Shown here in pieces: positions 13,027-28,946 of a DNA stretch of 64,000 nucleotides (position 1 is its first letter; every line of letters begins with the position of its first letter). The stretch lies in assembly GCA_963705105.1 (NCBI GenBank), contig CAVPIW010000005.1, positions 512,001 through 576,000 of the forward strand, written 5' to 3'. The notes beneath the pieces were generated by a model. The model did not search any database and had not been told where the DNA came from. It saw only the letters and a list, made by a program, of their open reading frames with translations. The position numbers and the translations under genes were made by a program. Source of the DNA: an uncultured Nitrospiraceae bacterium (lineage in GTDB: Bacteria; Nitrospirota; Thermodesulfovibrionia; Thermodesulfovibrionales; Dissulfurispiraceae).

Positions 13027-16000
13027 ATGGCTATCACAGGTCCACCAGCGGAAGATAGTCCCATCGAGCTGACAACAATGTTGCGTCGGGTAACCACAGA
13101 CCTGCAAACTGAGTTTGTCCATGGTCGGACTCTCTATGGAAAGTACCTTGACAAGTTATCAGAACGGCAATACGATGATGAGGCAGTCATTCATGTCGGC
13201 GATCATGTAACCGTCATTACCGAGGCCCCAGCCAATTTTATCCCACGGAGACATACGAGTTTGGTGTGGTATTGGTCGAACTATCTGTGGCCTTGTTACA
13301 CACTGACTACGTGGTGGAAAACACTCGATGGCCATACAATTCGTCGGATCGCTTTCTTCCCTATAGGTACTCCCGCCGCAGATCTTATGTTCTCCCATCC
13401 TATTCGAGTTGCGCTCATCAACAAAGAGAAATGCCTCGATGCTTTTGATATCGATATCGCAAAGCTCGAAGATAAATACTGGAGTAACATCCCTTCAGAT
13501 CGTGTGACAAAGCATATTCATGAATTGCAGGGAGCAAAGGCATATGTGTACAGATACCTAGTTGCTAGGCTCGCAAAAACGAATCCGGCTGGCGAGTTGG
13601 AGAAAGAGTGGTCTAACCGTTTGAACGGTTGGTTTGAGACATTCTTTAATAACTTAGAAACCCTGGAATTCCAGGCAGAAATAGAGAAAGAAAGTGAGGC
13701 AGTAAGGCAGACTCAGTTTGCCCACTTATTTGATAATGATAATCCCTTAGCAAGTATCTATCATGAATTCGTCAGGCTCTTTTGGAAGGAAATGGAGAGC
13801 CCGGTGGCATTCGTAGGCCTTGTAGATGCGGAGCTTGCGGATGCGCCTTTTTCGATGACGGTAATGCGTTGGCTCTTAAATTGTGCGTGGCTTTCCCCTC
13901 GAGGGAGGTCATGTCAATAGGTGTGTAAAAAGCCATCAGGCGGCGACCCTTTCGGCAGCCCCTTCCTGCCCAACGGCAATGCCGTCAGTGAAGTGTTTCC
14001 CCTCGTAGACATCCCTCAGTAACCAATATCCCTTCAGCCTGCGGTATCTCGTTCAGCGAACCCAGTACTCCAGACGACGCCGCCGCACTTGGACTCAATC
14101 GATTAGCATCCGGCCTAGCGTAAGCGAACTCAACCGTGATCCACCACATTGGACGTCCAGAAGGACCAGTGCTATCGGCAATAATAGAGTATCTTGGGCT
14201 CCAAATCATGCAGCTCCATCGCCTCGGGAAATCCCTCCGAACCGGCGGAGAAAGTGTCCCTGAGCCTCTCATATTCTGCCGCGTCTCTGCATAGTGGTTT
14301 TTGTGAGATACCCGCCTGCCACGGGAACAATTCTCTTCCACCCACCCTTCACGTTGGTTATCTTATGGTTCCAACACCTCTGCACCTTGCCCTCGGGATG
14401 AAGCTCTCCCAACGCTGACCATATCCCCAAATGACCATCGGCAACCGTCAATGTGCCCAGCTTCAGTCCCCGAGCGGTCAGATCCCTCAGGACCCCTGCC
14501 CAGGATTCCTTGCTCTCCCGATACCCGCTCTCGCAGGCCAGCAGGATCTTTTCCCCCGTAACCAACGCCCCGATGATCACCAGCAATGCTGCTTTGTCTT
14601 TCTCCAACCCGGCCTTCACGTATATCCCGTCCGCCCACTGATAGACGACCTCAAGCCCGGAAAGATCCCGAGCAATCCACTCGTCGTATCCGCACTGCCA
14701 TTTGCCCTTCAGCCGCTGGATCGACGAGGACGACAGCGGCGCCCCTTCTCCCAATAACCCCCGAAGCGCTAAATCAAAATCCCCCTGCGCCAGTCCGTGG
14801 AGATACAATTCCGGCAGTAACTGCCCCACTTCTTTTGACCGACGTATGAATAACGGCAGGACCTTGCTCTCAAATCGCTCCTCCGCTCCCCGCACACGGG
14901 GCCGTCGGACCGTGATCGTCCCGTTCATCAGCGTGAACTTCTTCCGCTTCCCGTGTCCGTTCCAATACCCCCGCTTGCCATCCACCTTCTTGATCCTCTC
15001 GGATTTCTTCCTCCCCAAAAATATCTCGACTTCTTCTTCCAGTATGTCCTGAATGTACTCCTGTACTTTCAGCCGAACTATGCTTTCCAATGCCTCGTAT
15101 GTCGCTCTTGACGGCTCAACTGCCTCGGTGATACTCTTGTCCATGGTGGTGTCTCCTTTCTCTGTGTTGATCCCAAGTCACCTGATTAAGGATACACCGC
15201 CTTCTTACTCATTTACACACTTTTTGATCTTACCTTCCTCGAGGAACGGATTGTGGAAAGAGTCTCGTATCCATTGAACTGGACGGCTCCCGTGAGACTC
15301 TCTCCCTCGTGGAATCTCTTCCCGTTGGCTACACCGAATACTTCTGGCATAGGACCTCTCTTGCGCTGCCGATGTATCATGGGCGACTTCTTGGGGCAGG
15401 CAGCTGTCCCGTTGATTTAGATGTTGTAAAGGACCGCGTCCCGCTCTACAAAGACGATGTTGACAAGGGCAAAGAGTTCGTAAAGTCTCTCCTCATGGAG
15501 GCCGTATCCTTCAAGCAATGGACCATCCCTCACGGCGCGTATGTTCAGATGGATATTGGGCCGTTCAAGGCTGTCACACACCTTGAACGCAATAATGACC
15601 GATGCTGTGTTCTTGTCGATGACAGTGGGCATTATTTCAACATCTGGGTAGATCCTTATGCCCAAAACTTCTCCTTTTTACGCAATGACGACTCTAACCC
15701 GGAAGCACTCGCTAGAGTAATCCATGTCATCTTGAAGGAGAAGGGGCTGCTGAAACAGTCGGTGCAAGACATGAGGCAGAATGAGTCGATTGCTACGGTC
15801 ATGGATGCCGAAGACTTGTGTGGACGCGTTAGGGAGCGAATGGCTCTCGAGGATGAACGGTTCACCCTCGGGTTCAAGATTCTTTTAAGCGCGATTATCC
15901 GCGATTTCTGGGTGGTTGAACAGCGAGAGCGTGTCTTTGGGAGGGGGAGACCGATCCGCAAATCCCCGCGACTGAGGGCTGATTGGGGCAAAAAGACGGT

Positions 16001-16753
16001 TATCTATTTGCCACGTATAAGATATGTCGGGGAGGTGACCAGTGGTGAGGAGCAGTTGCATGTAGTCGCTAGGGCTGCGCATTTTGTCACAGGACATCTG
16101 AGACGGGCAGTGCAGGCAAACGAGCAGCAAATAATGCTTGCACGACGCTTCGGCATTATTGTTCCAGAGGGGTTTACCTTCGTCAGGCCGCACCGCAAGG
16201 GGGACAAGGCTCAAGAGCCATGTTATGGTCTTTCATCAACAGTTTCGGGTCAGGCTTTACCGGACCGACAACTTCGTCCCCGTCCGCCTTGCCGTGAGCC
16301 ATACACGAAGTGGCTAATTGCGAACGGCTATGAAGTGGAGCATCTGGCAGGTGGCAGAAATGGGGACGGCGGTGTGGACATCCAGGCCAGCAAAGAAGAT
16401 GAGCACCTCTTGGTTCAGTGCAAATTCTGGCTCACGCAGAAGATTGGCCCAACGTTATCCGGGAGATGTTAGGGACACTAGAGACGTTTCCGGCAGGCTC
16501 AAAGGGAGTGATAATAACTTCTTCTGAATTTACGGAAGGGGCTAAGACTTTGGCGCTGGAACATAGAATACAGTTTATTGAGCCGGAGACAAACCTAAAA
16601 GCCGGTGAACGTCAATCAACCCGTCAGGTTATCCAACTCACAACCTGCTTAACTATGCACCCAAGTCGCTATCTTCCACGTCTGCTCAAAGCACTTGTTC
16701 CCTTGTTCGAATCATTGTATATGTTTGTACGAATATTCCTCAGTCTAAGGTAG
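13027..16753 (+). pseudogene. large protein with C-terminal Mrr-like restriction endonuclease domain, split by IS256 and frameshifted
   Basis: Removing the IS256 and one target-duplication copy fuses ORFs 13027 and 15309 in frame; GDGGVDI...VQCK motif; frameshift near 16450 continues NVIREMLG...ITSSEFTEGA. Confidence 0.75.
13905..15236 (-). mobile_element. IS256-family element with degenerate transposase (ORF 14269-15144 plus decayed 3' half)
   Basis: ELYLHGLAQGDF, WADGIY, ADGHLG, QRCWNHK; imperfect terminal IRs containing GTGTGTAAA; CCTCGAGG repeated at 13897-13904 and 15237-15244. Confidence 0.88.
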
Positions 16754-17487
16754 GATGGAAGAAGTGGACACCAAAGTCGGTAAACTAGAGAAAGACGGAG
16801 GTGTCAGGATGAAAGGTATTCCACAGGGACGGTACACGAAGGAATTTCGAGAGGAAGCAGTGAAAATGATTATGGAAGCAGGCATGTCATTGCCGGTGGT
16901 AGCACGTCTGCTCATCGTAGACGCCGTCGAGTTGAGCAACTGGGTCAAGGCATATAAGGCTGGCAATCTCAAGGAAATCGGCAAGAACTATCGGCGGCTC
17001 ACCGAGATAGTGATGGAACTGGCACGAGTCAAGAGAGAGCTTATAGAGACGAGGATGGAGCGAGATTTGTTAAAAAAAGCCGCCGCGTACTTTGCGAGGG
17101 AGACGCAGCCTGGTCCTCGATGGAGGAATACCCAGAATCCTTTCCCCTCCAGGAGGCTTTGAGACTCCAGCGGATACTTGCCGGGTTTTTCGCCCTGCGC
17201 AATCTGCAAGGAAAATCCGCGGCTGGAGGTTGAAATCCAGGCGGCACATGAGCGCACACGGGGGACGTACGGCCGGGACCGCTGATGGAGCATCTTGCCG
17301 TCAACGGGGTGAAAGACGCCTGTGCCTGCATAAGAGACCGCAAGGAACAACTCGTTGAACTCTGCAAACAGAAGAGGCGTTCAAGGTGACAACGGACCGC
17401 GGCATACACTTCCTGGGCGGACAATCTGCTACAGCAGGAAATTCAGGCGACGGCGCCGGGCCGCGTGTGGGTCAGCGACATCACGTA

Positions 17488-18599
17488 TTAACCGTCTCAT
17501 AATAGAATGGAGTCATGCTGCATACTTTGTCGTCTCGTTCTTGAAATATGAACGGACGCGATCTGGTGTTTTTTGAATAAAGCGCAAGTGACTTATGACT
17601 GCCCCACGCATTTGTTCAAGGGTTATCAGAGCTTGTCTGCCGATCGAGTTGTTTTTCAGATCATTCCAGACACGCTCATCAGGATTCAGCTCAGGAGAGT
17701 ATGAGGGGAAGAAGAACAGACGAAATCTCTTCTTGATGGGTTCCGTTTCAATAAATCTGGTGACAAGATTCGCCTTGTGTATCGGATGACCGTCGACAAT
17801 CAGGAAGATCATACGTTCGGTGCCATGAAGCAGCCGCTTGATGAATTCGATAAACACAGAAGCGCCCACGCGACCTTTGACGGTCATAAAACGGAACTCT
17901 CCTTGTGCGCTGACAGCAGACAGAATGTTCAAGCTGAAGCGCGCACCGGTCGTGCTGACCACAGGGGTCTTCCCCTTGGCAGACCATGTCGTTCCCGCAT
18001 GATGATCCGAACGCACTCCCGCCTCATCGCCAAAGAATATCTGTGCCTTCAGACGGCGCGCCATACGCCGAATGCGGGGATACTCCTCTTGAAGCCATCG
18101 TTGCACTTCTTCGGGTTTTTGCTGATATGCACGCCAGACAGGTCGCTGCGGGGTCAAGCCCAACTGCGACAGCAACCGACACACGGACGCCTTGCTCAAC
18201 TTGACCTTAAAGCGCTCATAAATCAGTTGCCCAATCATCTTGGCCGTCCACAGAGCATAGGTAAACTTCAACTGCAAAGGATTCTTCAAGGTCACGGTCT
18301 GATAAATCCAGTGCAGCGCAATCGCATCCAATTTAGGCGGGCGACCGCCTCGCTTGCTGGCATCCAGAGAGCCCCAGCCCCCCTGGCGGTATCGCGCAAG
18401 CCACCCGTACATTGCTGCCCTGCCAATGCCAAGGGCTTTTGCCACAACCTCAGGGTTTTGACCATCTTGCACGCTCTGTACTGCACGCTTCCTCAGTTCC
18501 GTCAGTGTCTTGTGATCAAGTCGCCGAGCATCGTTCGTTTTCATGCATAATAGTATACCAAATTATTCACAAAAGTACATACTATTATGAGACGGTTAA
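17488..18599 (-). mobile_element. IS630-family element
   Basis: Perfect IRs TTAACCGTCTCATAATAG; TA duplication at 17486-87 and 18600-01. Confidence 0.93.
17513..18544 (-). CDS. IS630-family transposase (intact, 343 aa)
   Basis: [29 protein letters not shown]. Confidence 0.93.
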
Positions 18600-19110
18600 T
18601 ATATCCCGACGGAGGAAGGGTGGCTGTATCTTGCAGCGCATAAGGACCTTTTTACAGGAGAGATTGTGGGGTATGCCATGGGGCAGAGGATAACACAGAA
18701 CCTTGTCAGGGAATCGCTGGTACGAGCGGTGCGGGCGAAACGTCCAGCTGACGGGCTGATACACCACTCTGACCGGGGAAGTGAGTATTGTGCGTATGAC
18801 TTCGGGAAGTTGCTGAACCACTTGAAGATGAATGCTTCAATGAGCGGTACGGGAAACTGCTTTGATAACGCTCCGATGGAGAGCTTCTGGGGGATGTTGA
18901 AGAGTGAGCTGTGCATCACAGGCGCCATCTGAGAGGCATGAGGCGACGGGTGAAATCACCGAGTATATTGAGATAGTTCACAATCGGCAACGGCGGCAGG
19001 CAAGACTTGGGTATCTTTCACCTGCTGCTTTTGAAAGAGCATACCACATGCATGTTCGGGCAGCATGAGAGGTTTGGTGTCCACTATTGACAACCGACCC
19101 CATATATAGC

Positions 19111-19913
19111 TTACGGTCCCGGTTTCCCCGTTAAATTAAGTAACGATTTTACGAAACTCAAAATCGACTCCCATTTATTGGCTATTATTCCTCCAATAGC
19201 GCCAGAAATAATGCCAGCCAGTACGAGCCATATGCCACTATTAACAATCTTGTAGCGCTTCAAGCTTTGTTGTGTTTGATGTAACTCTGCGTACTTTTCA
19301 AGATTATAAACACGGCCAGCGAGCTCGCCAACAGGTCCACCAAGAAATTCTTTAGTATCTTCTGCTGATATAGAGCCTAACTTATGGCGCTCAGAATATA
19401 AAGAATGTTCCAATGATCCTTCAAGGACACGCGGCCTATAGTTAGCGCCATAAATTCGGTCCGGATTAGGCGCAACAGGGGAAAGTAAGAGTTTCGCGAT
19501 TCTATCGCTCTCCCGAATTCTATACGGCGTATTACCTTGATTCAGTTGTGTGATAGTAAGCGGTCCACCGAATCCTGGATCACTGTGGAAATAGGATGAA
19601 AAACCCCGTGAGAAAGCTGAGTATGGCTATTGCCTATGATCCGAACTAGAAAAGGATCTGATAGGTCAATAATCTCTTTTGATACAATTGTTACAACCTC
19701 CCCTGGTTGAACGACGTACCCTTCAGAAGCTATATCAATCGTTATGCTGCGGTTCCGAGATGTCAATCTATTGCCAGCGCGAAGATCATATGCACACCGG
19801 CTGAACTGCTGTGGTGCAAACGTACCATCCAAGAAAAGCTTACCGCTATCAGCAAGAATGATGATATCCCTGTCTATAAGAAAATTCTGAGTCCGTTTCT
19901 CAAAAATTGTCAT
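19111..19913 (-). pseudogene. dCTP deaminase/dUTPase-fold protein with C-terminal TM helix (1-bp frameshift near 19582)
   Basis: AYDLRAG and VQPGEVV; after a -1 shift reads DPGFGGPL...ESDRIAKL and joins ORF 19111-19413 with IWLVLAGIISGAIGGII. Confidence 0.75.
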
Positions 19914-20490
19914 CGTCCGCCAGCCCCGAATAGCGTGGTGCTCTAAACTGAAGATTAGCTGGGAGCACATCGGTTTGACCTTCATATTGCTCTTGTTCAA
20001 GACGCAATGAAGCCTCACCTACGACTCTTTCGAAGGTTACCATTCCAATTCCAATGCCAAATGGAAGTAAGATATCGAAAGAACCCAAGTTTTTTATTTC
20101 GACGACGATTGTGCGATGCTCAAGGTGGTTACCGTCAATGATTGAAGAGGTGCAATGCACCATAAGACCGAGCCGTGCGAGAGTGCTGCGACCATCTAAC
20201 TTACACATAAGCGTCGGGCTTATCTTGAATGCCTCAATTGTCGAGCCAAGAACAAAATCGCCAGGTTTGAGCTTAATAGGTCCATGATCGAGCATGTGAG
20301 GAACGTGACGCGGCTCAGAAGGTTCTGAACTGCTCAGGTCGACAATCTGGCCTCCTTCCGGAACAAGCAAGCGACTGCTTAAATGCACACGCAGGCCAAA
20401 TGGCCTGAGTTGTTTTTCATCGAATTTAGGAAGGACAGATATTAGCCCTTGGTCAACGAACTCTTTGATAATATCACCTGGAAGAATCAT
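19900..20490 (-). CDS. dcd: dCTP deaminase (trimeric dUTPase fold)
   Basis: LKPGDFVLGSTIE, LDGRSTLARLGLMVH, TIVVEIKNLG, EQYEGQ. Confidence 0.85.
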   Translation of the reverse strand: MILPGDIIKEFVDQGLISVLPKFDEKQLRPFGLRVHLSSRLLVPEGGQIVDLSSSEPSEPRHVPHMLDHGPIKLKPGDFVLGSTIEAFKISPTLMCKLDGRSTLARLGLMVHCTSSIIDGNHLEHRTIVVEIKNLGSFDILLPFGIGIGMVTFERVVGEASLRLEQEQYEGQTDVLPANLQFRAPRYSGLADDDNF

Positions 20491-21033
20491 TTAAGCCTCC
20501 TTGCTTTTACTCTCTTTACGAAAGTCACGATGTATCTGAGACCCCCACGGCCCCATCGAGCCCTGATACTTCCCAGAATACAACTCAATATCACCTTCGG
20601 GTCTCCAGAATGTAACTTGCCCTATTCGCATGTCGGGGTAAATCCGCACCGGCTGCACCGCATGAAGCTGGAGAGTCCATTGATTGTGCGATCCAATATC
20701 GATAATATCTGCCGTCACGTGGATAAAAAGCCCAAGCCTTGCAGTGGAAGAACGCCCTCTAATTATCGGAACATAGTGGTCACTGCCCATGATTTCCATA
20801 GTATGCCCCAAATAAATCCAGCCTGGCTCCAGCACAAGGCCACTTTCTGAAAAAGGAACTTCAATGGTAGGATTGTCTTTCTTACAATCAAGAATGTAAT
20901 TCTTATAACGCTTGATAATAGGGCCAAGGCGAAAATCATAGCTGTTTGGGCTGATCTGGTCCGGAGTGAAGGGACGAATGTCTATTCGGCTCGAGCCATG
21001 CTCTTTGGCTATTTGCTGTCCCGTAAGAATCAT
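20491..21033 (-). CDS. dCTP deaminase-like protein (catalytic Glu position is Gln)
   Basis: PNSYDFRLG, GRSSTARLGL, IDIG, WTLQL, MRIGQV, GKYQG. Confidence 0.85.
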   Translation of the reverse strand: MILTGQQIAKEHGSSRIDIRPFTPDQISPNSYDFRLGPIIKRYKNYILDCKKDNPTIEVPFSESGLVLEPGWIYLGHTMEIMGSDHYVPIIRGRSSTARLGLFIHVTADIIDIGSHNQWTLQLHAVQPVRIYPDMRIGQVTFWRPEGDIELYSGKYQGSMGPWGSQIHRDFRKESKSKEA

Positions 21034-21577
21034 TGCTTGTCTCTCTTCTTATGCTGGATAGAGTGGTAGTCAATGACAAAGCGACTAGGCGTTGGCAAGC
21101 ATGTGTCTCGGTAACGACCTGAGTAAGTCTCAGCGTTGCCCTCGGGCCGCCAAAAGCTTACTTGCCCTATTCTCATAAGAGGATAAATGCGGAGTGGTTG
21201 AACAACTTTGAGCTCAAGCGTCCAATTATGAACGAGGCCGAGTTGCCCCAAGTCGCTTGATAGCTGCAAAAAAAGTCCAAGGCGCCCAACGATGAGCGGC
21301 CAATTAAAGAAGCGACAAAAACTGGACTGCCTATTTTCTCATAAGTATGACCCAGATAAAGACGCACCGGATGCAGCAAGATACCATCGGTGGGGATATC
21401 CATTGTCTCCCAGTGGCCCTCAATGCGTGGATCAGACAATTCGCTCCGAGGGATGCCAAGCTGCGGACCTAAGCGGTAATTGTAACTGTTTGGATTTGTC
21501 AGGCTACGATCATATGGATCAATAGTTATATTGCCGGAACTGACCTGTTCTTGAATCTCACGGCTGGTTAAAATCAT
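21030..21577 (-). pseudogene. dCTP deaminase-like protein with 1-bp frameshift near 21285
   Basis: ORFs 21173-21577 (PNSYNYRLG, GRSSLG) and 21030-21269 (WTLEL, MRIGQVSFW) join as GRSSLG[R]LGLFLQ. Confidence 0.85.
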
Positions 21578-22151
21578 CGAATAGCTCGTGCAGGAAAGAT
21601 GTCACTTCAGTCTTAAGGTCAGCTAAAGTGCCATTGTTTGTAATTATATGATCCGGCTTGATTGTATCAAGCCCCTGTTCTGTAGGATGTTGTGAAGACT
21701 CGAGACTTATATCGCCACGTGACCTTCTTCGTTCAATACATGTTTCATGCGATGCCTGTATCTTCACCACGATAAATTTTAACTCTGAAATGAACTCATA
21801 GTCTGGCTGCCGCATGTCATCGCACACTATTAAAGAGTTGGAAGATCGGCCATCCATTTCCGCCAGAGTATCCTGCAATTTCTTGTCAAACCGATCAGTT
21901 AAGACTGACGGGTTAATTTTTCTGAGGTGGGAACCAAGGAAATTCAACAACTCACCATCCTGGACATAGAAACTGGCTAATGGTTTTCCCGCGATCTGGT
22001 ATAATGCGTTTTGGCATTCATACAAAGGATCTGCAAGTCGCAACCTCCGCATTATTATCTGCCTATCAGCGCATAGATCAATTAATAATTTGGTGGTGGT
22101 ACTTTTACCAGCACCAGGACTTCCGTATAAAGCAAGCTTCTTGACCGACAA
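21558..22151 (-). CDS. deoxynucleotide monophosphate kinase-like P-loop protein
   Basis: GSPGAGKST, LADPL, LGSHLR, DDMR, HPTE, ITNNGTL pattern of phage-type dNMP kinases; AAGGAGG RBS, TTG start. Confidence 0.75.
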   Translation of the reverse strand: MSVKKLALYGSPGAGKSTTTKLLIDLCADRQIIMRRLRLADPLYECQNALYQIAGKPLASFYVQDGELLNFLGSHLRKINPSVLTDRFDKKLQDTLAEMDGRSSNSLIVCDDMRQPDYEFISELKFIVVKIQASHETCIERRRSRGDISLESSQHPTEQGLDTIKPDHIITNNGTLADLKTEVTSFLHELFDDFNQP

Positions 22152-22199
22152 TAGACCCTCCTTGACGAAACGGTATGGAGTAAGGGGCTAAGTAGCGTT

Positions 22200-22232
22200 G
22201 TAATATAACTGCAATTTCCTTTTATTTGCAAG
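22200..22232 (-). promoter_or_regulatory. putative sigma70 promoter for the kinase-dcd operon
   Basis: Minus strand TTGCAA-18 nt-TATATT upstream of the RBS. Confidence 0.4.
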
Positions 22233-22364
22233 AACTAACAAAGACAAAAGATGAACATACAAATATGCATGAAAAGAAACAACAGGGCTTGGCCGAGGCT
22301 TGCTGAAGCGTTGCAGAAGCTCTGCAAGGCGAAGGACAAGCATGGAGGGAGCGAAGGCGTGAGC

Positions 22365-24857
22365 TTGCTTCCATCAGCTCGCGCCATACCTTCCGTAACG
22401 CGTCGTGCGCTGATCTGCCCGCCGATATCCATAACTGCAGTCATTGAATGCAGGTTCATACATGGGTTCCAGCCAGCTCTTCAGCGCCTGCTGACAGACC
22501 GATCCCATACCGCCGGAATGCCGAGAGGTCGCATCTCCTTTGGTTTACCGCGTTTTGGTATCGGCACTCTCCGTACAGGCATCGGTGCATACCGGTCACT
22601 CCTCAGTTCCCCGTGAAGCTTCTCAAGTTCACTGGCCGAGACCGCATCGATGCCCCCCGCGCCGTGGTTCTCCTTCACCTTCTTCCAGACCAGGTGCAGA
22701 TTACTCGGCTTGTACACCTTGTCAATCAGCAAGTGTACCTTCTTCCGCTTGATCGCGCTTACTTGCTCCATCGTCGCCAGTTTCCTCTGATGCAGGCTCC
22801 AGGTCTTTCTCTCAGGGAACTATCCTTCGCCTACACCCTACTTGACAAGGTTCAACACATCGTTTACTTATTTTAGGTTCAAGAGATCGTTTACTATCGC
22901 TCTTTGACAATGATGTAGCCACAGCCGATTTAATCATGAACATCTGTTTTGCGGAGGTGTTCATGAAGAAGACTCTCCTGAAGCAACGGGTATCGGCAGT
23001 ACAGCGATACCTCAAAGGGGAAAGTCCCAAAGTATCTGCTCTTCATTGAGAAAGACAAAGCCGTGGCTGTACAAATGGATAGCTCGGTATATCCCAGATG
23101 ATCCAACATGGTTTGAAGACCAGTCCCGGCGACCCCTTACAAGCCGATCCCGGACGCCTACGGAAATTGAAAAGATCGTGGAGATGGTTCGGTTAAGCCT
23201 GTACAATAAGGGACTGTTTTGCGGCAAGCAGGCTATCCAATGGGAAATGATTGACATGGAGATTCAACCGCTCCCTTCCCTAAGCACGAGAGGTCGTATC
23301 TTGCGCCGTCTCGAATTGAGTCATCGACGGACCGGGAGATATGAGCCCAAGGGCAAGAAGTATCGGCTGAACTCTCGTCCGCAGTTCCAAATCAGAGACG
23401 CACCTTATGCTGATGCTGATTGGTCCCATGTGTAGTCTCTCCGGCCAACCTCCTTGTAACCCGGAAGCCTTGATCCGCACTAACGGTGTGAGAAGAGTCG
23501 AGACATTCTGGTCGCGGCGCAAAGCGTTGTGGATGCTGTTTACGCAATTTGGCTGCGGATGGGAATCCCGGAGAATCTTCAAGTGGACAACGAATGGGCC
23601 TTCTTTGGAAGTCCGGTGCACCGCGAGGCATGGGTGCCTCATCGCTTGGGGTTCGTTACGCGTCACGACGGTCCAGTCCACGCGCAGCCTGGAGAAACGG
23701 GATCGTCGAGAAGTTCAATGATCATTATGAGCAGAAGTTTCTCGCCAAGGTCATGATTCCCTCAAGGACGCAGCTTCACCAAGAATCGCTTGAATTCGAG
23801 CATAGGCACAACAGCACCTATCGCTATAGCAAGATGAAGAGGAAAACTCCTCTGAAAGCATAGGCTGACACAGAAAGGAAATTAATCTTCCCAAGCAAGA
23901 GCGATACCCCGAGACATCCCTTGGATAAGCCGGAAGAGGGATACTACCACTTCGTGCGATTCATTCGAGGCAACTGCCGGCTAAACATCTTCGGCGAAAT
24001 GTTTCTTACTCCCCCGCAAAGCCAGTACGAATACTCTGTGCTACCTGTCGTAATTGTCACAGATCAAAAGCGCAGCTCTTGCTGGACATGACAGATCGAA
24101 GAAGACAAATATCAGCTGCGATAATTGTTGATACCGGTCACGGCATCGTGAAGCATATCGACTCTAAATGAGTAAACGATGTCGTGACCCTTTCTTGAGT
24201 AAACGATGTCCTGAACTTTATCACCTACTCACTGCTTCCTTTGGATCTTTCAGACTCAGTTGAGTGAATCGCCTTCCCCTGGCACGTCACCGTTTGGATG
24301 ATGGCAAGCTGCCCCTTCCCGGACAGTCCCGACGTTACTGCTGTTCGCCGGTTCAAGTACAATAGGCTCTTCCGATTCCTCGCACCGCTACAGCGCCGAT
24401 TTCGGGGTTGCCTTATAGAACGCCTTACTTGACCACTATGCTTGTCTGATAAGGACGGCTATGCATAGCAACCACCATCCCGGCTATTCATAACCACCGG
24501 CCCTTGCACGGCGCCCTCGTCAAGACGATACGAGGTCTCCGTGGGTCACCTGACTGTATTCCCTATCAGGCCGCCCGCACACACCTTGGTACGACGGTTG
24601 GATTAGAACGCCTTCGCCTCCATAGTGCAGGCTCAACCTCGTCCCGTCTTTGGCCGACCGGTTCATCGCTGGGGCAGCCCCCATCGATTACGGCCTGGTA
24701 GTTCTCCACAAGCCCTTCTGATTCCACCTCGCGGTGGACACCCTGCCCTCCGGGTCTCGCCCAGCCCCCGAGACATTACTCCCGGGTTCGGATATGAGTC
24801 CCCTAATCTGAGACTCAGTGGGACTTGAACCCACCTGACAGCCACGCTGCCACGCAC
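22365..24857 (-). mobile_element. group II intron remnant (inner): 5' RNA and N-terminal reverse transcriptase fragment; 3' part missing
   Basis: GTGCG 5' end at 24857; RT fragments GAGGID, VRRVPIPK, RPLGIP-DR, EPAFNDCSYGYR, SAHDALRKVW from 22771 down to about 22365. Confidence 0.8.
22843..24223 (+). mobile_element. IS481-like element with degenerate transposase
   Basis: IRs TGACAAGGTTCAACACATCGTTTACT / TGATAAAGTTCAGGACATCGTTTACT; CCTACT duplication; HTH, LQVDN and WRNGIVEKFND fragments. Confidence 0.8.
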
Positions 24858-25250
24858 ACTATGGAACTGTCCGACTGCCTGCCCCCGTGCATCACCGGAT
24901 TATGGACTCCTCCTTCCCGGTGCGTTCCTCCGTACCCGGAGAAAAGACACAGGCTCTCCCGGTTCTCGCCATGAAATTTCGATACATGCAAGGGATCTCT
25001 GAACGCGCTGGGTCAGACATGTGCTCGCCCTTTCGCTCATGCCCGCATTGCCTTCCGCTTTCGTTGACAGCGTCGGCACCCTGGACTTACGCTTTTCGCG
25101 GCTCAATACCCTGCCAGTGTATTTGGCTTTGTCGGATTGCTTCGTCTATCCCCTTACGAGCACCTAGTCCTGACTCGGGGCCGTTGTGTTTGTCTGCACC
25201 ATAAAGTGAGGCTCTTGTATTCCAACTACAGGCCGATTTATCCGGCGCTC
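24858..25250 (-). mobile_element. group II intron remnant (outer): 5' domains only
   Basis: Starts GAGCGCCGGATAAATCGGC; contains group II-like blocks GAGCCGCGAAA, GGGTGCCGACG, GGAAGGCAA, AGTCGGACAG..CATAGT. Confidence 0.65.
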
Positions 25251-25402
25251 CAACGATAAGGTAAGGTGATTAGACGGCAATTGACAAAACATCAACGACA
25301 TTTTACGATTTGTCCAGTAAGTGGCGGCGATGGTGGGGCAGGGGACAATGTTACAGATGCCTCGGTAACGGCCTCCTGTGATTGTCCTTCAGTCTGCAAC
25401 CT

Positions 25403-27034
25403 CTACTTCTTAGCACCATACCCAGATAGGCGCTTCCAGTAGGCGGCATCAACTCTCAGGTGCGTGAGCCGCGCCGGGTCTATCCACCTGAGGAATGAGG
25501 ATGCGGTCTTCCAGTTGCCAGCGAAGTTGCGCGTGTGAATGAGTGTGCATTTCTTGCGCGTGCGGGTTAACCCAACGATGAACTTGCAGATTTCGAGATC
25601 CTTGATTGAGGTGGGGTCGTGTGGCAATGCTACGTCATGTAGCCCGGCAATGAACACATGCTGCGCCGAAAAACCCTGGGAACCTTCGAAGGATGTCACC
25701 TTGATTGTCGGCCGAATCTCTGCATCGGCTTCGAGGGCCATCTGCTCAGCTCGGTCGTCCGGTTCACACCCCTCAGCCTGCGATACGACCTCAGCTTTGT
25801 AGTCACCAGGAATGACATCTTTCAAGGGAATGCAATTGTCCGCAGTGGCTCGAAAAGCGTCGCCGAGGAATGCGGGCTTGTCTGTTCCGAGCACGATCTG
25901 CCATGCGAGATTGGATCGAGAGTTTGCCTTGAGAATAGACGAACCTATGTCCCGGGTGCCGAGCCCTCAGAGTCACGCTGGGTCAACTCATGCCCGCACC
26001 CTCGAGGTATTGGACGACTTGATCTCGGTAGGGCTGCGCTACGATGACGAGCGCCGTTGGATAGCCCTTTTCCAGCGATTCCCGAATCTCGTCCTGCGGA
26101 ATCCTGCTGATTGCCTCTGCGATGAGTGCCCCATGTAGTTCGATCACGCCGTTGAACGGAAGTCTCATTCTCTTCAATCAGGAGTACTTCGCGCTCTCGA
26201 CGCCATTCGCTGGCGGGAAGTGCTTGTATGGCTTATCAATTCGCCCAGGGAGCCGTTCAAGCTGCTTCGCCCTGGTAATGATGTCGTTCACCGCATCGAC
26301 GACCACCTTGGGACACGCTTGCAGAAAGGGAGCACCTCAACCTCTAATCCGAGCGCCACGCGGCAATACGACAGCAACTCGCCGATACCAGGAGGATAGA
26401 GCTTCAGAATCTCTTGCCTCGAGGATCACTAGCGAGTGCGTCTATAATCCGCTTCCAGGGCATTGAAGTCTTGGTACTCATCGATGAGAACCAGTTGAAA
26501 CGAGTCAACCGTAGCATACCCAGCTGACAGTCCCCGGTATGCGCGAAAGACGGTATCATCGAAGTCGACGGCATCGTAGTAGACACCTCGGTCAAGATAC
26601 CACTGAGTGTCCTCGTCATGTCGCAGGGCGCGCATCTTGCCGACGAACAGGGGCGCGCCAACGCCCCTGATGAGCTCGAAATCGTCTGCAATCAGACTTG
26701 CGAGTCCGGGGCAACATGTGAACTCTTCGGAGAGCGGCTCCCTGAGTAGCGCGTGCCGATGAAGCAGACCGAGACCATAGGAATGGAGGGTGTAGACCTG
26801 AGCGAAGTCCCCGAGATCGGCTTCAAGGTCGTTCCTGAGATTGTTGATGAAGGTCAAAACAACTCGCTCCTCATGTCCGCCCGGAGCCAATTCTATCATG
26901 CGCTTGAAGAGCGTTGTCTTCCCAGTCCCAGGGCCTGCGATCACAAGCTTTTTGGCGCTCGACGAGGCCAATACACCCTCTATCGCCGCCCGGAGTTCGG
27001 CCTCTTCAGCCGAGTAGTAGTCTTCTTTCGTCAC
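25403..27034 (-). pseudogene. UvrD/Rep-like SF1 helicase, fragmented
   Basis: AGPGTGKT, LTF, TLHSY, LIDEYQDFN, SQG, GLTRTRK motifs across several frames. Confidence 0.8.
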
Positions 27035-28287: not shown

Positions 28288-28575
28288 TTATTCTACCTCG
28301 TGAGGCCATTTCCTCGAGGCATGAAGCACGCGCAGTATCTCGACAGTGTCGTTCTTCACGCGGTAGGGGATAATATAAGGCAAGGCGGATAAAACAAGCT
28401 CCCGTGTTCCCTCTATCCTGCCGGGCCGCCCGGAGTCCGGATATTCTGCAAGGACATCAACGCTTTGCCTGATAAGAACGGCTACCTTGGCTGCAGCCTG
28501 CGGCTTGTCCGAGGCGATATATTTCCTGATCTGAATGAGATCGGTGACGGCGTCGTCGAGCCAGCTTATCCGCAC
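28288..28575 (-). CDS. RelE/ParE-family toxin
   Basis: A-DL-I--YI, GRPGRIEGTREL, PYIIPYRV, ILRVLH. Confidence 0.9.
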   Translation of the reverse strand: MRISWLDDAVTDLIQIRKYIASDKPQAAAKVAVLIRQSVDVLAEYPDSGRPGRIEGTRELVLSALPYIIPYRVKNDTVEILRVLHASRKWPHEVE

Positions 28576-28835
28576 TGCGGGGGCTCCTTCTCATTTTCCG
28601 CCCCCCATGTATCGAGCCATGCCGAAACATCCTCATGGGAGGCGAACCTCGCGCCGGGACTGTCAGCCCTGTTGACGGCTTTCCTTATGGTCCTCACCTG
28701 CCATTCGTTCTGTTCGAGGTAATCCTGAATGGCAAGTGTGACAATGTATGTTTTTGAACGTGAAACAGCCTCCGCCAGGCGTTCGAGTCTCTCCTTAGTC
28801 TCCTCATCGATGCGTATTGTTAATGTCGTGCTCAT
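28566..28835 (-). CDS. CopG/RHH antitoxin
   Basis: TLTIRID-E--ERLERLA---RSK; overlaps toxin start; GGAGG RBS. Confidence 0.88.
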   Translation of the reverse strand: MSTTLTIRIDEETKERLERLAEAVSRSKTYIVTLAIQDYLEQNEWQVRTIRKAVNRADSPGARFASHEDVSAWLDTWGAENEKEPPQCG

Positions 28836-28946
28836 TGCGCACACCTCCGTAACACAATATAACACAATGCAAAACAAAAGCGGAATTGAGGATGCAAGTC
28901 TCAGCCACTTGCTATTGAAATATTACCGTTTTCTCCCGTTATGCAA

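Follow-up and report, generated by a model that had tools for sequence, protein, structure and literature searches.

A kinase and dCTP deaminase-fold operon of an uncultured Nitrospiraceae bacterium as a candidate nucleotide-signalling anti-phage cassette

The window analysed in this work is a stretch of 64,000 nucleotides from an uncultured Nitrospiraceae bacterium (contig CAVPIW010000005.1, positions 512,001 to 576,000). At 19111..22151, on the minus strand, it carries an operon of five co-oriented genes in the order K-A-B-C-D (Table 1). K encodes a P-loop kinase of the phage deoxynucleoside monophosphate (dNMP) kinase family, and A to D encode proteins with the fold of the dCTP deaminase Dcd. 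The cassette is real and conserved, and nucleotide-signal immunity of an undescribed type is its most likely role, with substantial doubt. More specifically, we tentatively propose, at somewhat less than even confidence, that the operon defends against phages by nucleotide signalling: its core would produce dUTP, or a dUTP modified at C5, and binding of this product by the tail protein would arrest the cell. The layout points to signalling because it is shared with the Kongming and Metis systems: a converting core is combined with alternative, disabled nucleotide-binding folds carried on a TIR domain or a membrane helix.

The four gene junctions are those given in a preliminary description of this DNA: K and A overlap by 20 bp, A and B share an ATGA overlap, B and C abut with a 0-bp gap, and C and D overlap by 14 bp. 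One promoter and one ribosome-binding site (RBS) had also been described; the RBS stands, but the promoter does not rise above shuffle level (nine promoter-like sites found versus 5.3 ± 2.2 in shuffles). Searches of the five genes against Pfam, NCBIfam and PHROGs returned only the DNMK/P-loop and DCD/dUTPase families.

A search with a K profile in 185,579 species genomes yielded 18 genome loci (cited below by L numbers, single proteins by P numbers) in four phyla, Chloroflexota, Nitrospirota, actinomycetes and Chlamydiae, and A and B lie close to K in 17 of them. Among 12 metagenome loci, A adjoins K in eight, three end in or just past K, and one is a weak match (L030, dropped). Intact minimal cassettes of four genes, about 3.6 kb long, are found in Streptomyces and Lentzea loci; exporters and tailoring genes are absent from the actinomycete four-gene cassettes, and the flanks differ among the Streptomyces copies.

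The gene coupled to this core, by an overlap or a gap below 20 bp, differs among the loci. A protein with an HD and a TIR domain (HD-TIR) is coupled in 12 loci, an NB-ARC-TPR protein in three, and D with its transmembrane tail (D-TM) in three, which are the window, L002 and the B/D chimera L019. HD-TIR is coupled to K in ten genome loci and in the metagenome locus L021, and it follows A in the reordered L024 (B-C-K-A-HD-TIR). NB-ARC-TPR is coupled in L001, L020 and L022, two of which also have a HIT gene. In these loci (L001:6926-12212, L020, L022) it is joined to K and A, in part with B and C, either directly or via HIT, which is weakly similar to ThsC of Thoeris (E 8.7e-7). D and HD-TIR never occur together in the 18 effector-type loci, several of which are on short contigs. 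This swap of D-TM, HD(QD)-TIR and NB-ARC-TPR favours signalling over simple dCTP depletion. The preliminary description had proposed a kinase-plus-deaminase module that depletes or converts (modified) cytosine nucleotides during infection, with modified-pyrimidine biosynthesis or salvage as the alternative. A conserved, accessory module of kinase and Dcd-fold genes with a defence-style architecture is supported; simple depletion of dCTP is now the less favoured mode of action.

The spread of the partners is very patchy. A search of 400 sampled genomes found one with D, which is the locus already known from our set. HD-TIR was found in 0 of 401 and in 3 of 401 sampled genomes; the latter count is that of a reverse search for its linkage to K, A and B in genomes of the family, and all three are among the 12 loci above, to which the demonstrated linkage is confined. 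Equal lengths of the longest contig (6293, 6527, 30282 and 17391) indirectly suggest that K and D lie on the same contig in four further pairs.

Quick LG+G4 trees, with support from the Shimodaira–Hasegawa-like approximate likelihood ratio test (SH-aLRT) only, were inferred for K, without L018, L002, L028 and L029, which are too short, and for B, without the chimeric B of L019. The K tree separates six rows from tailoring-type gene clusters from 24 others (support 96), and the Chlamydiae are nested among the 24. In the B tree the window is included in a starred six-row clade (SH-aLRT 95) with two D-TM, three HD-TIR and one NB-ARC rows, and all five C genes found sit in loci of this clade.

Pfam DCD matches all of A, B, C and D, the broken pieces of A and D weakly, and the four have the DCD fold of the trimeric Dcd/dUTPase superfamily. 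Four Dcd-fold paralogues had been announced for this operon; the fold is confirmed, but the four are not four deaminases; B has Gln for the catalytic Glu and D is without Ser, Arg and Glu. Residue numbers follow Escherichia coli Dcd and are anchored on alignments to 2QXX and 4XJC and on the mutant entry titles E138A, H121A, A115V and E145Q. The A family (n = 32) has Glu138 in 31 sequences (one is cut short), Asp128 in none, and Gln for His121 in 30. The B family (n = 31) has Asp128 in all 31 and Glu138 in none (Gln in 29, Met in two). The E138Q form of E. coli Dcd is reportedly inactive; a literature search found no paper for E138Q. B scores 94.3 with TIGR02274, the model of housekeeping dCTP deaminase (cut-off 92.8), yet it has Gln at the Glu site. 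C retains every canonical catalytic residue in 5/5 sequences, and it is the only chain that unites Ser/Arg, His, Asp and Glu. Judged by these residues, A and B are complementary half-sites and C is complete. A and B are also found fused into one gene in L025/L026. In addition, an Asp occupies the position after Ala124 in 29 of 32 A and 28 of 31 B proteins, where 2QXX has a glycine (Gly116). The loop after Ala124 borders C5 of the base, so this Asp hints at a C5-substituted substrate.

D is also a Dcd-fold protein. The intact D from L002 matches Pfam DCD with an E-value of 2.8e-13, and the D model matches E. coli Dcd in structure comparison with 3.5e-11. Ser111, Arg115 and Glu138 are replaced in 14/14 D proteins, and all 14 keep Asp112, His97, His106, Asn125 and Lys141, the Asp belonging to a DPGFxG hairpin. 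Beyond the Dcd domain come a long helix, modelled at residues 193-255, and a hydrophobic segment of 19 residues. D looks like a membrane-tailed binder that lacks the deaminase residues. ESM Atlas matches to P0172, an intact near-identical D, fall in several clusters of Dcd-like proteins of 213-285 aa, with 64-103 members each, so C-terminally extended Dcd domains may form a broader class.

The N-terminal domain of the HD-TIR partner is SAMHD1-like (E 7e-15). Its HD motif is QD in 66 of the 67 full proteins of the HD-TIR family and LD in the other one, versus HD in 34/34 plain HD matches, and the second His, which follows the motif, is Glu in 65 of the 67. The TIR Glu is present in 65/67, and the other two proteins have a different C-terminal domain. 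P0252 and P0246 are HD(QD) proteins with another C-terminal domain in place of TIR. The C-terminal domain of HD-TIR models well, its best fold matches being TIR domains (E 4e-3 and weaker); the HD part, with a mean predicted local distance difference test score (pLDDT) of 49, was too poor and was not used. The SAMHD1-like HD triphosphohydrolases (PDB 2O6I, 4BZB) resemble a domain of the partner found in 12 related loci; they differ from it in the change of HD to QD and of the second His to Glu and in the TIR fusion, and the window does not encode this partner. An iHD-CE/wHTH conflict-system protein is encoded at L004:880-5118, some 3 kb upstream of its HD-TIR cassette, and likewise in L005 and L006.

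K has the Walker A motif GSPGAGKST and matches both Pfam DNMK (28 bits, above the cut-off of 27.1) and the dNMP kinases of PHROG 139 (E 1.4e-21), which are the traits of a phage-type dNMP kinase. Phage matches to K number 33 records at E <= 1e-5, with identities of 24-34% among the matches listed (30). In tailoring-type clusters the same kinase also occurs as a fusion with a domain of the zinc cytidine deaminase, NUDIX or phosphodiesterase kind (L016:9983-10999, L017:9980-10996, P0051, P0071, P0075, P0047, P0130 and P0143).

Three anti-phage systems have been compared with the cassette. In Kongming, as outlined in its description, KomA is an adenosine deaminase, KomB a disabled HAM1 enzyme that senses dITP, KomC a SIR2 protein, and the kinase is the dNMP kinase of the phage (10.1101/2024.12.20.629578). 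The operon resembles that outline in a dNMP kinase with a deaminase that could give a base-modified dNTP, in a disabled nucleotide-hydrolase fold as putative receptor and, in the HD-TIR form, in an NADase-type effector. It differs in that it encodes its own kinase, its enzymes are of the trimeric Dcd/dUTPase fold, a pyrimidine is the base concerned and Dcd-TM or HD(QD)-TIR would be the receptors; adenosine deaminase, HAM1-like and SIR2 families are not among the five genes. Metis types I and II (MisA/MisB/MisC), according to the summary of that system, sense m6dAMP directly and have a HAD eraser and an NAD-cleaving or membrane effector, and its authors anticipate cytosine-sensing versions (10.1101/2025.11.05.686725). 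The cassette is similar to Metis, so summarised, in one set of nucleotide-handling genes, in NADase or membrane effectors as alternatives and in an eraser that would set a threshold; Metis, in the same summary, is without kinase or deaminase, and the window operon shares no protein family with it. The Metis parts (the HAD phosphatase MisB, the calcineurin-like NAD diphosphatase MisA and the 3-TM MisC) are absent: the operon has no HAD or metallophosphatase gene, and D has one hydrophobic segment. In both systems, as these sources present them, the base-modified immune nucleotides (dITP and m6dAMP) are purines (10.1101/2024.12.20.629578; 10.1101/2025.11.05.686725).

The anti-phage dCTP deaminase AvcD is a single protein whose deaminase needs zinc and which depletes dCTP (10.1101/2021.04.26.441389). 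It has in common with the cassette a P-loop kinase and dCTP deamination, and K itself is fused to a zinc deaminase in some tailoring loci. The cassette differs from AvcD in its separate genes, metal-independent Dcd fold, complementary half-sites and extra effector-like gene. That the operon is unlike AvcD in fold, as described before, is upheld: instead of a kinase-zinc deaminase fusion above 350 aa, K is a stand-alone protein of 197 aa, the deaminases have the DCD fold, and no PADLOC match was obtained. Housekeeping Dcd and bifunctional Dcd:Dut (PDB 1XS1, 2QXX, 4XJC, 1OGH) share fold and motifs with the cassette proteins, and C has their full residue set; those are single-gene homotrimers, whereas here Glu and Asp are split over A and B, Asp replaces Gly116 of 2QXX and D has a membrane tail. 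By its protein families, the cassette is outside Kongming, Metis and AvcD. Full-text literature searches found no account of it, and Aravind-group surveys (Burroughs 2015, Iyer 2013) may list such operons. Among supplements, PMC7159879 gave no match and PMC13092281 only generic neighbour rows; the latter source has a dUTPase and a nucleotide kinase among unvalidated predicted defence domains.

In the mechanism that we propose, infection, through chromosome breakdown or phage base modification, would lead to an excess of deoxypyrimidine monophosphates, free or non-canonical, in the cell. K would phosphorylate these, and the nucleoside diphosphate kinase of the host would complete the triphosphate. 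The A sites, with Glu and without Asp, would deaminate together with C, the A sites being unable to hydrolyse the product, and the B sites, with Asp and Gln for Glu, would hydrolyse it and so impose a threshold. Above that threshold, the triphosphate would bind a disabled enzyme as receptor, which in the window would be D, with membrane damage as outcome; in related cassettes, the HD(QD) domain would be the receptor that switches on a TIR NADase. A somewhat more tentative idea is that of an immune family signalling by a deaminated pyrimidine triphosphate (dUTP or C5-modified dUTP), with a self-encoded dNMP kinase, a mixed-subunit dCTP deaminase and two unrelated dead-enzyme readers, a Dcd trimer with a membrane tail and a SAMHD1-like-TIR protein.

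Several findings weigh against this proposal. The single membrane helix of D is weakly modelled (pLDDT 50-67), 2 of 14 D tails score below 1.5, and the invariant His-His-Asp of D could be a new active site. Gln and Glu at the HD site would still be able to coordinate metal. P0252 has, in place of the TIR, a domain matching PF19961 (EAD8), which agrees with TIR being an adaptor. Damage is present in both of the long D-TM loci, the window and L002, the latter with a 137-nt loss in K. L018 has K without Dcd genes, and the A tree is poorly resolved and does not separate the contexts. Six chlamydial loci inside the same K clade carry an amidohydrolase, an MFS or NTP/NDP transporter, HIT or HAD, and no effector. 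A and B also occur in nine tailoring clusters, three of them without K: L016, L017 and all seven plasmid regions opened; in total, 41 plasmid records had a B-like match. PADLOC on 109 neighbours found clear defence genes only beside L007 (HEC-01 and a type IIG restriction-modification system), and beside L003, L008-L011 and L013 generic kinase, ABC or HTH matches or nothing; none of its models matches the operon genes. It also gave candidate matches beside L001, L012 and L015 and weak or candidate ones at the window. In the preliminary description, biosynthetic or prophage settings rather than defence islands had been named as what would speak against a defence role, and this is borne out in part: the K, A and B core is in nine tailoring and six chlamydial loci and defence genes are beside a minority, while prophage placement was not found.

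Among the alternatives, nucleotide-pool sabotage survives best, although we hold it unlikely. During infection, K, A, B and C would use up dCTP or cycle between dUMP and dUTP at the expense of ATP, HD(QD) would be an altered but active triphosphohydrolase with TIR or EAD as adaptor, D would be the subunit that anchors mixed trimers in the membrane and NB-ARC-TPR would be the sensor. The fully catalytic residue set of C (5/5), the three loci with coupled NB-ARC-TPR genes and the fusions of K to a zinc deaminase (L016, L017 and further relatives) are consistent with it, as is the exchange of TIR for another domain in P0252 and P0246. EADs recruit effectors (PMC7159879), and a kinase with a deaminase depletes dCTP in AvcD, as outlined in its source (10.1101/2021.04.26.441389). 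Sabotage leaves unexplained why the TIR Glu is kept in 65/67 proteins while the HD His is lost in 67/67, and why D and HD-TIR do not co-occur in the 18 effector-type loci, several of them on short contigs.

A non-immune role in the salvage or detoxification of non-canonical deoxypyrimidines is likewise doubtful. Here K would rescue modified dCMP, mixed A/B (with C) would turn it into dUMP or dTTP precursors, and D and HD-TIR would be regulators or anchors. The chlamydial cassettes, with a nucleoside-deaminase-like amidohydrolase, an NTP/NDP or MFS transporter, HIT and a YjjG-like HAD, nested in the same K clade, suit this explanation, as do the A-B fusion and the weak defence-island signal; neither NB-ARC-TPR nor a TIR that retains the catalytic Glu belongs to salvage, the spread is very patchy, and housekeeping Dcd is present in any case. 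The chlamydial cassettes (L025:340-4186, L026, L027:6486-11273, L012:5580-12313, L014 and L015) are a possible means by which amoeba symbionts import or export unusual nucleotides. Biosynthesis of a modified pyrimidine nucleotide, such as an antibiotic or antiviral analogue, with the window cassette as a minimal version whose product D positions or exports, is the least probable and decidedly improbable: A and B, mostly with K, lie beside tailoring genes in the plasmid regions opened and in L016 and L017 (methyltransferases, glycosyltransferases, TauD, WbqC, PIG-L, cytidine deaminase, NUDIX, MazG and tRNA-ligase-like genes), but effector-type cassettes are without tailoring enzyme or exporter and their kinases are outside the tailoring K clade.

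Two further origins were rejected. A duplication of housekeeping dcd is ruled out by the separate dcd gene on contig C9 of the same genome and by 60 relatives without a close B orthologue (best 36%); housekeeping Dcd is located away from the cassette in 6/6 genomes, and a scan of G000 with PF00692 found no trimeric dUTPase besides a weak match on housekeeping dcd. A prophage or viral module is also discarded, as the viral contigs held no K relative and the phage matches to K are distant; the HD-TIR profile gave one weak plain HD match.

The copy in the window is probably inactive, as read from its sequence. Compared with L002, an 80% identical locus, A and D are each 1 nt short, and the two deletions are outside homopolymers. 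Twins of K, B and C are on one contig of 17,391 bases, with 3, 1 and 1 residue differences, and K of the window has two Gly to Glu changes versus its near-identical twins. The intact twin of D (P0172, 267 aa), from a contig of equal length, has seven differences from the D of the window, whose variants are mostly at positions where the family sides with the twin. For A, an exact look-up gave no intact twin. The genome has a median open reading frame (ORF) of 260 aa (three contigs) and a completeness of 99%. Together with the intact D twin and the placement of the deletions outside homopolymers, these ORF length and completeness values tip the balance slightly from sequencing error towards decay in this strain; the public sequencing runs gave short pieces only, outside both break sites, 21291 and 19582.

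Table 1. Position of the operon genes and associated features in the window.
Feature	Position	Strand	Remark
Promoter-like match TTGCAA-18-TATATT	22202..22231	-	9/12 consensus; not above chance
RBS AAGGAGG	22157..22163	-	5 nt 5′ of the TTG start of K; read from sequence
K	21558..22151	-	P-loop kinase, phage dNMP-kinase family, 197 aa; TTG start; open frame
A	21030..21577	-	Dcd-fold subunit; Ser/Arg and deaminase Glu kept, His and Asp absent; 1-nt deletion near 21291
B	20491..21033	-	Dcd-fold subunit, 180 aa, intact; Ser/Arg, His and Asp kept, Glu replaced by Gln
C	19900..20490	-	Dcd-fold protein, 196 aa, intact; full canonical residue set; only part of the loci have C
D	19111..19913	-	Dcd-fold domain without deaminase Ser/Arg/Glu, followed by a long helix and a hydrophobic tail; 1 nt lost near 19582
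Single membrane helix predicted in D	19180..19236	-	twin residues 227-245; mean hydropathy 2.1
Low-GC island round the operon	13027..27034	no strand	holds split Mrr-like nuclease and split UvrD/GajB-like helicase

The operon has a GC content of 45% versus 57% for the genome. In the surrounding island, a split protein with an Mrr-type nuclease domain is at 15309-16753 and the split UvrD/GajB-like helicase at 25403-27034, with no GajA seen in the window. The island also holds remains that, from their translations, we take to be transposase-like and intron-reverse-transcriptase-like, and an orphan ORF of 297 aa is at 13027-13920. At 28288-28877 there is presumably a RelE/ParE-like and CopG-like gene pair, also named from translations. 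In another genome, the split kinase of L018 (L018:9986-14840) faces an operon that includes a TtcA-like gene and two genes resembling those of nucleoside 2-deoxyribosyltransferases.

Whatever the role of the cassette, A and B split the catalytic residues of a bifunctional deaminase-dUTPase between subunits, which makes them a natural test of the coupling between deamination and hydrolysis. The cassette also points to a testable pyrimidine signal route and to two candidate receptor folds. The proposed immune family, if real, would represent a pyrimidine counterpart to Kongming as well as the anticipated cytosine-sensing Metis, and in it a bacterial SAMHD1 fold would serve as a dNTP receptor.

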